22,624 nucleotides of DNA from a virus: UHGV virus genome UHGV-0204244. One strand, given 5' to 3'. Position numbers and translations under genes: made by a program. Positions 1 to 6,356 of this stretch are shown here, piece by piece. Every line of letters starts with the position of its first letter. Position 1 is the stretch's first letter. Below the pieces are notes generated by a model. That model did no database searches, was not told the DNA's origin, and saw only the letters and a program-made list of their open reading frames with translations.

Positions 1-20
1 TTTTTGCCTGGAGAATTAAG

Positions 21-212
21 ATGACCGATACCAGCCTGATTCCTGAGAAAGAAGTGATGAACAAGCTCGGTGTTTCATCACGTCAGACAATCTGGAACTA
101 TACCAAACGGCACGGATTTCCGAAGCCAGTCAGAACCCACCCCAAATCATACCTTCGTGAAGCTGTTGAAGGGTGGATTCTTAACGGTGGCGTTAATCAG
201 AAATGCTCCTGA
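21..212 (+). CDS. AlpA-family phage DNA-binding protein (excisionase/transcriptional regulator-like)
   Basis: 63-aa ORF with GGAG about 6 nt upstream of the ATG at 21. Sequence '...LGVSSRQTIWNYTKRHGFPKPVRTHPKSY...' fits the AlpA/Xis-type winged-helix pattern (STIYRLIKxGxFPKPIKLG...). It converges on int and overlaps its 3' end by 20 nt. Confidence 0.7.
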   Translation: MTDTSLIPEKEVMNKLGVSSRQTIWNYTKRHGFPKPVRTHPKSYLREAVEGWILNGGVNQKCS

Positions 213-1371
213 TGTGCCAGAACAATTTATCAGCGTGAAGCTCATACGCTTTGCGCTGAGCCTCTATCCAGTCATGTTTATTGTATACGGACATTATCCC
301 GCCAAGTTCATGACCGAGCATTCGCTCAGTAACATGAGGCTCGACATTCATCTCGGACAGCCGTGTAACAAGCGTTCTTCTGAAATCATGTGTTCGCCAG
401 TAACCTAGATCCATCCCTCCCCTTATTCTATTTACGAATCGGTTGGCTGCAGCGATGCTGATCGGTTTGTTTATGTCTTCTCCAGGGAAAAGAACATCAT
501 TGTACGTTGTCATGGCCTTTTCGAGAAAAGGCTTAATTTGTTCGAAGATTGGACGGCGGATAACATTACCCATCTTGCTATGCTCTTTCGGTACGGTCCA
601 TACGTTGTCCAGCAGGTCAAATTCTGTCTTTGTTGCCAGCCTAAGCTCTGAGAGCCTCGCCCCCCACAGCATAAGCATCTGATGAAGTAGCTTATTTGAC
701 GTAGACGCACGGCTTCTTTCAATAGCAAGCCAAATCTTAGCCAGTTCGTGATACGACAGTACCCGATCCCCTACCTCAGCGCGGGAGCCGAAGTCCCTTG
801 GTTGGATGCTCATAATTGCGCAACTATCTATCAACTGACGCCGCATGCACCAACTTATTGCTGATCTTAGTTGACTTAGCACCTGCCTTGCTCGGCGTGG
901 ATTATCTCTTTCTTCTTCGGTAAGCAGGTCAACCCATTGCTTAACCGTGATAGAAGATGCCGGACGATTAGGGAAGGCGTCATGCATGCGCTTCATAACC
1001 GTTGATCGGTAAAGTGCCTGGGTCTTTTCTCTGAGAGTTGTAGAGACGTAGTTGTCGAACCAGTAGTCGAGACACTGGGCGACCGTCATGGAGTTCTCCA
1101 CCTTCTCTTCAAAATAGGTGCGTGGATCCGTTCCTGAGAAATAGAGCTTTCGCAAGTCAGCAGTGATCTGTCTGGCATCCTTCAAAGACAGGGATGGGTA
1201 TCGACCAAGCCCAAGTCGATTAGGCTTGCCATGCCAGCGATAGCGGTACTGGAACTGGATGACCCCCTTCGGTGAAATTCGTACGCTGAGGCCATCGGCA
1301 TCAGCCACTTCTTGTGGGCCCGAATATGGTTTACCATAAATAGTACGCAGTTTTGTGTCGCTTATAGCCAT
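193..1371 (-). CDS. int: Tyrosine site-specific integrase (P4-like family)
   Basis: 392-aa ORF. The N-terminus (GLSVRISPKGVIQFQYRYRWHGKPNRLGLGRYPSLSLKDAR) is typical of the P4-type integrase arm-binding domain. The C-terminus carries HDFRRT and the ...LGH...YNKH... catalytic region with the active-site Tyr. Confidence 0.92.
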   Translation of the reverse strand: MAISDTKLRTIYGKPYSGPQEVADADGLSVRISPKGVIQFQYRYRWHGKPNRLGLGRYPSLSLKDARQITADLRKLYFSGTDPRTYFEEKVENSMTVAQCLDYWFDNYVSTTLREKTQALYRSTVMKRMHDAFPNRPASSITVKQWVDLLTEEERDNPRRARQVLSQLRSAISWCMRRQLIDSCAIMSIQPRDFGSRAEVGDRVLSYHELAKIWLAIERSRASTSNKLLHQMLMLWGARLSELRLATKTEFDLLDNVWTVPKEHSKMGNVIRRPIFEQIKPFLEKAMTTYNDVLFPGEDINKPISIAAANRFVNRIRGGMDLGYWRTHDFRRTLVTRLSEMNVEPHVTERMLGHELGGIMSVYNKHDWIEAQRKAYELHADKLFWHIRSISD

Positions 1372-1379
1372 AAATAATA

Positions 1380-3431: not shown

Positions 3432-3451
3432 AACAAATTGTTGAATATCGC

Positions 3452-4165
3452 ATGGACAATACTCCATGGAGGCCAGATACCTGCTTTCTCAATCCAGAGC
3501 AAGATTATTCATCTTTTTCAAAATGTCATGACACCATGACTGAAAAGTCTTTCGTTGTTTGGGGTGACTCGCATAGCGCACATCTTATACCTGGTCTAAG
3601 ATCTGTGTTTGGGGACAAGATAAACATAACCCAAAGAACAGCAAGCCTTTGCCCTCCACTTATTGGTCTTGATATAGGAGGAAGACCACATTGTCGTGAA
3701 ATTAATAACAAGGTATCGAAAGAAATCGCTAATGCAAAACCAAACACCGTATTGCTTTCAGCAATCTGGTCTGTATATCCTATGCGCAACTATCTTCCAG
3801 ATACTATTAAATTCCTGAAGGATAACGGCGTTAAAAATATTATCGTTATAGGTCCATTCCCTGTATGGAAGAAAACAATGATTGATACTATAGAGGAAAT
3901 TGGCATTAATGCAGGAGGGACAATCACTTGGGATATGATTGATGGAACCAGAAACCTAAGAGGTAACGATAAATATCTGCAAAATCTGTCTAAAGAGAAG
4001 AAATTTACTTACATTTCACCACTTGAGGCTATGTGCACAGATAGTTATTGCAAAGCAATAGTAGAGCATAAAACTGCGTACCCTATACAATATGACAATG
4101 CACACCTTACACCAGAGGGTGCGAAGTGGTTTATTGGAAAGGTTGAGAATCAGATTTCAAAATGA
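3452..4165 (+). CDS. SGNH/GDSL hydrolase domain protein; probably the C-terminal domain of the same O-antigen acetyltransferase
   Basis: 237-aa ORF with SGNH blocks: GDSHS (block I), GND (block III) and DNAHLT (block V, DxxH). No convincing RBS before the ATG at 3452. Its frame is open back to 3401, and a G6 instead of the G5 tract at 3400-3404 would fuse it in frame to the AT3 ORF. Confidence 0.75.
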   Translation: MDNTPWRPDTCFLNPEQDYSSFSKCHDTMTEKSFVVWGDSHSAHLIPGLRSVFGDKINITQRTASLCPPLIGLDIGGRPHCREINNKVSKEIANAKPNTVLLSAIWSVYPMRNYLPDTIKFLKDNGVKNIIVIGPFPVWKKTMIDTIEEIGINAGGTITWDMIDGTRNLRGNDKYLQNLSKEKKFTYISPLEAMCTDSYCKAIVEHKTAYPIQYDNAHLTPEGAKWFIGKVENQISK

Positions 4166-4194
4166 AGAGAGGGGCTTTGCCCCTCTTATTTTAT
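4166..4194. terminator. Bidirectional intrinsic terminator between the convergent acetyltransferase and tailspike genes
   Basis: Stem AGAGGGGC (4168-4175), loop TTT, stem GCCCCTCT (4179-4186), followed on the plus strand by TATTTTAT. On the minus strand the same hairpin follows the tailspike stop and is followed by a weaker T-run. Confidence 0.6.
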
Positions 4195-6356
4195 ACGACA
4201 CTGATCCAACTTGTACCGTTCGCCGCTACAGGGCCAACCCCACCCGCAAGGCTGGTATTTGTGTTGTAACAGTGATTCCCTCTAACTGCAGTTGCGTTGT
4301 GAACATCCGCAAAAATACCAAACCCTTTAATCACCCAAGTGACCCCTGAAACCGGTGTGGATGGTATAGCGGAGTTTCCATACTGCATATGCCCACTTAT
4401 ATTTACAGTTCCGGTTGTTGTAGTGAAAACTTCACCTGTTTTACTTGATACAACATTACCACCACAAACAACAGAATAGCCGCTAACCAGACTTGTTAAT
4501 TTGTCTGGGTTGTTGAAAAATCCACCGATAAACTCAAACGAGGGAGTGGTATTGTCGTAGTTAACACCAGTACTTATAAAGCTATAACCATTAGATTGTG
4601 TTAATTTATCGAAAATAACTCTTTCTACTTTACCGCTAGACTTTCTTATCACCGCCTGCCCTGAAATCAAGTCAATATTCCCCGAAGCAATAACGGTGTT
4701 TATCTGCCCGCGGGTGATGCGAACTCCGGATGCGTCCGATACGCCGGTAGCAAGTAATGTTTTATCGAAATTAACCTTAAGATTGTCTATTCGGCTATTA
4801 TCGGCACCGGCGCCATCGCCGCCCACCTCCAGAAAATATGCGACATCGCGAGGGCACCGACATTCCAGGTTGTAGATACGAACCGAGGATGACCCAGCCG
4901 AGCCGGTAGTTACTGACACCACAGGCACAGTAGCTGACGAGTAGTTAGCAGATATTACGCCAATCACAGCATTATCGACAGTGACAGCTCCTGTACCGAC
5001 GGTCTTGAACTCGATAGCTCGGTATCCGGCGCCCGGGACACCGCCAACATTGTCAATGTTCAAGGTTTTAACACCAGTCTGTGCAAGTTGCGCGCTATCA
5101 GTCCATACACGGATTACACTGTGCTGATATGTGCCGTAAACACCGTCAACACTGAGATGACGAATTGGTGTAGTGGAGTTACCGGCAACCTTAACCGCGC
5201 ACAACGAGTTAATGCCATAAATTCCCTTAACGTCGATATGGTTAAACGTTCCGCGCAACCCTAAATCGTAAGCAAGGTAATCCCCTCCGGTCATTGCAAA
5301 CATGTCATCGCCAGTCGTACCGTACAGATCCCTTACGTAGGCATAATCAATAGGTGGCTGTAGATGAAGTCCATCAGAGTTGTTATTAAAACGAAGCCCT
5401 TGAGCATCAAGATATTGAACGTTGGCTACAAGGTAAGAATATTTTCTTGCACCTTTAATTTCCAGTCCACCACCTAATTTAACCCGCACTGCTGATGCAA
5501 TGCAGATGCAATGCATTTCCATCCCATTCGAGGTGCCTCCCGTAGAATAGTTGTAGTCAACGGTCCCACCTCCCCATATCCCAATATAATCTGAGCGGTT
5601 ACCAAGATCGGATGTGTTAGAAGCAAAACCTCCCGAGACTGTCCTGTTTGACAGAACATATTCCCATTTCTCACTTACAAATACCGGCCTCAGATTGCCA
5701 GACGCGCCTGAAACCGTAACGCCGGATTTAATTTCGATGTCGGTGTTATTAGGGACTATGATTGGCCCATTGACAAAAATAGTACCCTGATCTGCAAACA
5801 CAATTCTCGTAATCGTGGACTTACCAGACAGATCGTTCAGCATGTTCTGCAAATTTGTAGAGTTAACGGTGGCACTATTTGTTGGTAAGACACCGTAATC
5901 ACTTACATAATAAATCCTATCTAATTTGTCTTTTACTGTTTGTAAAATTGCAAATGGTCCCTTATTTTTATATCCAATTATTCCTGCGCCATCACTTCCA
6001 GAAAGACGCTGCTCCAGTTGATCAGGGTCGTACTTCAGCACATTCGTAAAATAAAACTGCTTCGCACCGTACGCATCATAAACAGCCATAGAATGGCCTT
6101 GCACGGTAACGAATTTGGCAATCTGTCCGTTATATACCGGATAACCGGCGGCGTTAATGATGATTGGTTGAGAAACAGGAACGTGAGAACCGTCTTCATT
6201 CTCTACATAAACCTGAATCCGGTTTTCAGGATTTACCGGGTCAGTGTCAATTTTCCCGATATAAATTTCGCCATTGGCTACGGCTTTAAAAGAACGCGCC
6301 ATAGTGAAGAGTTGCGAAGGCATGCTTACCACAACATTTGCGGTGATATCTGACAT
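4191..6356 (-). CDS. Tailspike protein: P22 gp9-type N-terminal head-binding domain plus a divergent beta-helix receptor-binding/O-antigen-cleaving body
   Basis: The N-terminal ~110 aa ([43 protein letters not shown]...VLKYDPDQ) is close to the remembered P22 gp9 N-terminus. The rest does not match the P22 endorhamnosidase body. Start set at the internal ATG 6354-6356, which has GGAG 9 nt upstream, rather than the ORF-track start at 6404. Confidence 0.9.

Follow-up and report, generated by a model that had tools for sequence, protein, structure and literature searches.

A 2851-type phage attachment site lies intact between the integrase and tailspike genes of a P22-like phage genome

We analyzed a 22,624-nucleotide stretch of the virus genome UHGV-0204244 (the whole stretch is referred to as the window), in which an AlpA-like gene, an integrase gene (int), an acyltransferase pair, and a P22-type tailspike gene all lie inside 6.4 kb. 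The first-pass annotation had flagged int and the tailspike gene as neighbors within 3 kb, and the gap indeed measures 2.8 kb from the integrase start codon (1371) to the tailspike stop (4191). We conclude, with a probability of about 90%, that the window derives from a P22-like temperate phage and shows its genes in vegetative, unintegrated order, that of the circular map, with int and the tailspike gene adjacent because the phage attachment site (attP) has not been split by integration. Read from right to left, this map would run through lysis, terminase, portal and coat, DNA-injection proteins, Mnt, tailspike, an O-antigen acyltransferase moron, attP, int, and the AlpA-like gene. The window is thus best read as phage-order sequence and not as a prophage boundary, which matters little beyond correct annotation.

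The attachment site could be fixed at positions 1586 to 1598, with the 5' end of sbcB, between dacD and sbcB, as its predicted target in the host. Alignment A1 comprised the window, both junctions of a prophage in Escherichia coli JNE181771, and the empty site of E. coli K-12. The window has exactly the sequence of the int-side junction of the JNE181771 prophage up to the core and that of the dacD-side (tailspike-side) junction beyond it. K-12 sbcB shows the reciprocal pattern, and the only sequence common to all four is the 13-mer TTTCACGATTACG, which has one exact copy in the whole window. The core flanks recombine as expected, and the window therefore carries an intact attP rather than attL or attR. 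Phage sequence lies on both sides of the core and host DNA on neither, which is not what the end of an integrated prophage looks like. The integrated order in JNE181771 is dacD / acyltransferase-tailspike, then lysis, then immunity, then AlpA-like gene-int / sbcB. Of the two arrangements that had been proposed at first, the one with an intact attP between int and the acyltransferase is borne out, the core falling inside the predicted interval of 1372 to 2372.

Database comparisons placed the site at the same positions. When the window was compared with phage records by megablast, the prophage-derived ones (phage 2851 and Shiga toxin [Stx] phages) matched positions 1 to 1598 and then ended, while the isolated phages mEp234, HK140, and HK544 matched without interruption across the core, to 1748 to 1817. 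The 13-bp feature annotated in mEp234 as "prophage attachment site (type 2851)" maps to window positions 1586 to 1598. Among 5,426 complete E. coli genomes, chromosomal matches either end at 1598, with sbcB beneath, or begin at 1569 on the tailspike side; in these first searches neither the prophage-derived records nor the chromosomes ever matched across the core. The 52-mer at 1810 to 1861 had no exact match in genome_contigs and matched three related proviruses in IMG/VR; these are 89 to 98% identical over the aligned segments and have alignments that end at 1569 or at the end of the locus. The same core has been published for both Sf101 and 2851, being given in the Sf101 paper as the reverse complement CGTAATCGTGAAA, upstream of int (PMC4159516). 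The window has it as an exact match, likewise upstream of int, and its attP is the published 2851-type (2851/Sf101-type) site targeting sbcB.

The two prophage junctions have about 30 bp in common (1569 to 1598), and an assembler might have joined the ends of a prophage through this shared core and sbcB-like repeat, producing a false attP. The sole other public contig that encodes the exact tailspike protein of the window, Logan SRR7892440_424, ends at window position 1646, before the core and near the att region, as such a difficulty would have it. Nevertheless, we regard an artefact of this kind as highly improbable. A join mediated by the core would leave host sequence on at least one side, whereas here both arms are phage sequence, and they are colinear, for about 550 bp, with attP regions from phages that were sequenced independently. 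The same sequence would also arise, as a genuine one, from phage DNA excised and circularized in a culture.

We surveyed the configurations of the site with a 459-bp att region as the query. It matched 586 of the 5,426 E. coli genomes, typically in two places each, corresponding to both junctions, and was intact in only three of the 586. Among phage records it was intact in 11, representing seven isolated phages, and the prophage-derived records again end at the core. The three chromosomes with an intact att region, E. coli O157:H7 MB9-1 (NZ_CP040107.1, 2014984 to 2016800), Show KS 470-1, and STEC799, each have three att-related places and appear to carry tandem prophages at sbcB. In MB9-1, the intact site is bordered by int of one lambdoid prophage and by nleG7 and tail-fiber genes of another.

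These chromosomes supply the only serious rival for the physical origin of the window, namely, that it comes from a bacterial chromosome in which two prophages sit in tandem at sbcB and spans the point where they meet. In this reading, int and the AlpA-like gene would belong to the neighboring prophage, and the attP-like site would be a hybrid made when a second phage entered the att junction of the first. We consider tandem prophages very unlikely here. The configuration is rare, as the survey numbers show, and in none of the three cases (one of them, MB9-1, shown in detail) is a P22-like prophage involved. No complete E. coli genome covers at least 80% of window positions 1 to 7300. The order int-attP-conversion gene-tailspike, on the other hand, is exactly that of the isolated phages Sf101, E212, EC.P3, and APC_JM3.2; it is thus not peculiar to the window, and the flagged arrangement is an ordinary one that was known before.

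Some points weigh against an unintegrated phage all the same. The junction of tandem prophages with the same int would also be expected to give an intact attP, as in the three chromosomes above, and what an intact attP reveals is how the genes are ordered, not in which physical state the DNA exists. Our evidence is confined to positions 1 to 22,624, with the sequence past the ends of the window outside our view. Binding of Int to the repeats described below, the part of the AlpA-like protein in excision, and the exact crossover points within the core are predictions from sequence. The AlpA-like protein is a putative excision factor whose Pfam score (AlpA/HTH_17), at 17.8 bits, falls below the curated cutoff of 21.

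The target of integration can be read from relatives of the window phage. An integrase protein identical to that of the window, widespread in that it is listed in 1,895 blocks of the collection, directly adjoins sbcB in all 10 of the chromosomes that were read. In the same 10 chromosomes, the sequence past the AlpA-like gene still consists of phage early genes, and the junction with the host lies on the same side of int as attP. Together with the mapped junctions and the hybrid sbcB gene described below, these chromosomes place integration of the relatives in the 5' end of sbcB. A tRNA gene as the target was considered and rejected: the window contains none, and the target is sbcB. No host gene was found among the window genes tested with Pfam and PHROG, every one of which is a phage gene.

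The integrase gene (193 to 1371, minus strand) is of the phage 2851/sbcB type and encodes a tyrosine integrase. Pfam matches its N-terminal part to Arm-DNA-bind_3 (PF13356, 8.2e-18) and its catalytic part to Phage_integrase (PF00589, 1.1e-16), an assignment made from the domain matches as a whole. At the DNA level the gene is 98 to 99% identical to its counterparts in phages 2851, mEp234, and HK544 and in Stx phages, and its 5' end faces attP. The AlpA-like helix-turn-helix gene (21 to 212, plus strand) is a candidate excisionase (recombination directionality factor), with weak Pfam matches to Phage_AlpA and HTH_17. It is proposed as such from its position and the annotation of its homologs, which RefSeq names AlpA family regulators and others annotate as similar to an excisionase. 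The two genes are convergent, and their 3' ends overlap by 20 nucleotides (193 to 212).

The second arrangement proposed at first had the functional att site to the left of the AlpA-like gene, with the window being an atypical or rearranged end of a prophage. Some P22-like phages do have an attP on the other side of int; that of Shigella phage Sf6 (NC_005344) is annotated beyond int, between int and a xis-like gene. We nevertheless find this placement scarcely credible for the window. The attP core is positively located at 1586 to 1598, and the overlap of the AlpA-like gene with int leaves no intergenic space for an att site, unlike in Sf6. The 10 chromosomes with the identical integrase place sbcB on the other side of int, with early phage genes where this arrangement would put the host. 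Chromosomal cases in which int and a tailspike gene are neighbors are remnants of internal deletions in the integrated order, unlike the window. Three of them (H28, H29, and H30) were considered as counterexamples and rejected: they are remnants with large internal deletions or insertion sequence (IS) elements and still have the order dacD / (acyltransferase)-tailspike-...-AlpA-like gene-int / sbcB, the opposite permutation from that of the window. Heavily deleted P22-like remnants at sbcB were seen in E. coli PSJ-16, FDAARGOS_1337, and isolate 131; remnants at this locus keep only the tailspike gene, the AlpA-like gene, and int, often with the acyltransferase gene and often with IS1, IS421, or ISEc52.

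Returning to the reading of the window as unintegrated phage, a second and independent sign of it comes from a short open reading frame (ORF) that spans the core. This 19-codon phage stub (1553 to 1612, plus strand), recognized in the translations, encodes MTDTDKQPTFLFHDYAQHP followed by a stop and mimics the 5' end of sbcB; the K-12 SbcB N terminus is MMNDGKQQSTFLFHDYETFGT. In the window, the stub begins with the ATG at 1553 and stops four codons past the core, while in a lysogen it continues into sbcB. The hybrid N terminus in the lysogen reads MTDTDKQPTFLFHDY followed directly by ETFGT, and the gene is annotated as an intact sbcB of 474 amino acids, with a start equivalent to window position 1553. 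On integration, sbcB therefore exchanges its first 15 codons and is not inactivated.

Both arms of attP contain repeats. The motif TTGGTACRC has four copies in the window against 0.27 expected, all at most 210 bp from the core and two on each side, and these are candidate arm-type Int sites. On the P arm (1380 to 1424, plus strand), directly upstream of the int start codon, are TTTGGTACGC at 1380, TTTGGTACAC at 1403, and a degenerate ATCTGGTACACA at 1413, grouped as repeat families D1, D2, and D4. The candidate P'-arm repeats (1650 to 1675, plus strand) are TAGTTTGGTACGCA and then ATTTGGTACACA. The arm repeats are kept in mEp234, in Sf101, and in an O157 chromosome. An ORF of 78 amino acids within the P' arm (1643 to 1879) is doubtful; it overlaps a hypothetical gene annotated in Sf101, and Pfam and PHROG scans of it gave no match.

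From the anatomy of the window and the published behavior of Sf101 and 2851, we propose the following course of integration. The N-terminal arm-binding domain of the integrase would bind the TTTGGTAC(G/A)C repeats on both arms and its catalytic domain would bind the core, and the enzyme would recombine TTTCACGATTACG with the identical sequence at codons 13 to 16 of host sbcB. The resulting prophage would have int and the AlpA-like gene next to sbcB and, about 40 kb away, the acyltransferase and tailspike genes next to dacD, with predicted junctions ...TTTGTTTCACGATTACGCGCAACACC... on the dacD side and ...CCTCTTTCACGATTACGAAACC... on the sbcB side. The stub would take the place of the first 15 sbcB codons and so keep the host gene intact. 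Excision would be directed by the AlpA-like protein.

The serotype-converting Shigella flexneri phage Sf101 (KJ832078/NC_027398; Jakhetia et al. 2014, PMC4159516) is the best overall match, covering 59% of the window at 95.5% identity. It has the AlpA-like gene, int, attP with the same 13-bp core, an O-antigen acyltransferase gene (oacB), a tailspike gene, and a P22/Sf6-like virion module, and the matched parts of its integration module are about 96% identical. It differs in several ways: the receptor-binding part of the tailspike is different, since positions 1 to 6711 are matched only in part, the window is without 67 bp of the P' arm region, and OacB is a single AT3 protein of 390 amino acids, with no counterpart of an SGNH-domain ORF present in the window. 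With no record covering as much as 80% of the window, the phage taken as a whole represents a new mosaic.

The wording "circular P22-type map" in the first-pass annotation was fair. The circular map of Salmonella phage P22 (BK000583) runs tailspike, gtrCBA, attP, int, and xis, with the tailspike-to-int interval taking 3.1 kb, and its injection proteins and tailspike head-binding domain have homologs in the window. The likeness does not extend to the recombination genes: P22 has an unrelated lambda-like Int/Xis pair, whereas the partner of int in the window is the AlpA-like gene, and it is the 3' end of int that abuts attP in P22 but the 5' end that faces it in the window. P22 also carries gtrABC in place of the acyltransferase. 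P22 integrates into a tRNA gene, unlike the window phage, whose target is a protein-coding gene. Sf6, with a closely related virion module, likewise has its tailspike gene, the oac acyltransferase gene, and int adjacent to one another. The Sf6 attP, however, lies beyond int and does not separate int from the tailspike gene as that of the window does; the three genes therefore stay together at one prophage end. The general statement that int and the tailspike gene sit at opposite ends of the integrated prophage consequently holds for P22 and for the P22-like prophages that integrate at sbcB, but not for Sf6.

The integration module of the window (1 to 1930, comprising the AlpA-like gene, int, and attP with both arms) is common to lambdoid phages of other morphotypes. 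Phages with the 2851-type module (Stx2c phage 2851, Stx phage 1717, mEp234, HK544, and HK140) have the attP core, the sbcB target, and an int gene that is 98 to 99% identical. They are, in contrast, lambda/HK97-like siphoviruses or Stx phages, and past attP they have tail-fiber or other genes and no P22-type tailspike gene. mEp234 matches positions 1 to 1817 and, past a stretch of 67 bp that the window lacks, aligns again as far as about 1930. These 67 bp, absent from the P' arm region of the window (at about 1818), are present in mEp234, Sf101, and the O157:H7 MB9-1 chromosome (alignment A2). For P22-like phages with other int modules, the match begins at about 1860, which puts the mosaic joint just to the right of the P' arm. 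Positions 1 to about 1930 are thus a cassette that HK97/lambda-like siphoviruses and Stx phages also carry and that is combined here with a P22-like virion module. This is one more case of the 2851-type integration cassette being exchanged among lambdoid phages whose morphotypes differ.

Between attP and the tailspike gene lies a variable moron slot. It holds oacB in Sf101, UmuD/polymerase V-like genes in APC_JM3.2 and HK140, and a glucosyltransferase gene in other prophages, and in E212 and EC.P3, judged by the match spans, there is little past the attP arm. The window offers a further example of this slot being used for O-antigen-modifying morons. About 1 kb between int and the first acyltransferase gene has no convincing genes by ORF listing and Pfam. 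The acyltransferase, of the AT3 family (2338 to 3431, plus strand; Pfam Acyl_transf_3, 5e-38), is likely an O-antigen acetylation (lysogenic conversion) gene; it is 24% identical to Sf101 OacB. A stand-alone SGNH-domain ORF follows (3452 to 4165, plus strand; PF19040, 1.5e-29), a family described by Pfam as normally fused to AT3 domains. The AT3 stop is at 3431 and the SGNH ATG at 3452 in a different frame, and the independent Logan contig has the same split. To see whether the split could be a broken fusion, a fused prophage acyltransferase of 648 amino acids was used as a tblastn query; the AT3 part alone aligned, at 38% identity.

The start of the AT3 gene is frameshifted in the window: from the ATG at 2338, a run of five adenines (2347 to 2351) leads to a frame closed at 2365, and the open frame runs from a TTG at 2373. 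The Logan contig, 99.99% identical, has six adenines and an intact ORF of 364 amino acids beginning MSYKKFRLDINGLRAF. The difference could be due to a sequencing error, an inactivating mutation, or homopolymer slippage. It is conceivable, although we think it very unlikely, that the AT3 and SGNH genes together make up an O-antigen acetylation moron of two parts, with A5/A6 slippage at codons 4 and 5 turning its expression on and off; if so, the phage would carry a phase-variable receptor modification that matches the specificity of the neighboring tailspike.

The GC content is 0.34 to 0.39 at positions 2000 to 4000 versus about 0.50 in the virion genes, as would fit a conversion cassette gained by horizontal transfer. 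Upstream of the acyltransferase gene, a 17-nucleotide inverted repeat (94% complementary; 1986 to 2002 and 2230 to 2246) flanks an AT-rich spacer of 227 nucleotides, a direct repeat TTTGTCTCA occurs at 1974 and 1985, and a 14-nucleotide hairpin lies at 1942 to 1975. These may be moron boundary or terminator elements. Scans of positions 1300 to 2450 found fewer promoter-like sites than in shuffled controls and one terminator-like hairpin, which is the chance level.

The tailspike gene (minus strand) has a longest ORF of 4191 to 6404, in which residue 17, a methionine, is the first to show homology to the Sf6 and P22 tailspikes; the gene start is therefore 6356, the coordinate first given, and the longest ORF reaches 16 codons upstream of it. 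The protein combines a conserved N-terminal head-binding domain (P22 type, PF09008, 4.8e-65) with a divergent receptor-binding part. Matches to PDB sequences (Sf6 gp14 and the N-terminal domain of the P22 tailspike) are confined to residues 17 to 224, so that the receptor-binding part is without a close solved relative.

Next to the tailspike gene, a gene for an Mnt/Arc-type repressor of the immI region (6445 to 6744, plus strand; Pfam Arc 1e-14, Repressor_Mnt 4e-12) marks conventional P22-like surroundings. The rest of the window encodes P22-type injection proteins, coat, portal, large and small terminase subunits, a Rha-like protein, and an Rz spanin. PHROG matches were to a DNA transfer protein, major head protein, portal, and terminase, and Pfam PF16928 was also matched. 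With its head-binding tailspike, gp16/gp20-type injection proteins, and P22-type portal, coat, and terminase, the virion module is P22-like (Lederbergvirus-type), and its nucleotide matches are to Sf101, CUS-3, HK620, and Sf6. The Rha-like regulator or antirepressor gene lies at 21374 to 21928, between the Rz spanin and small terminase genes.

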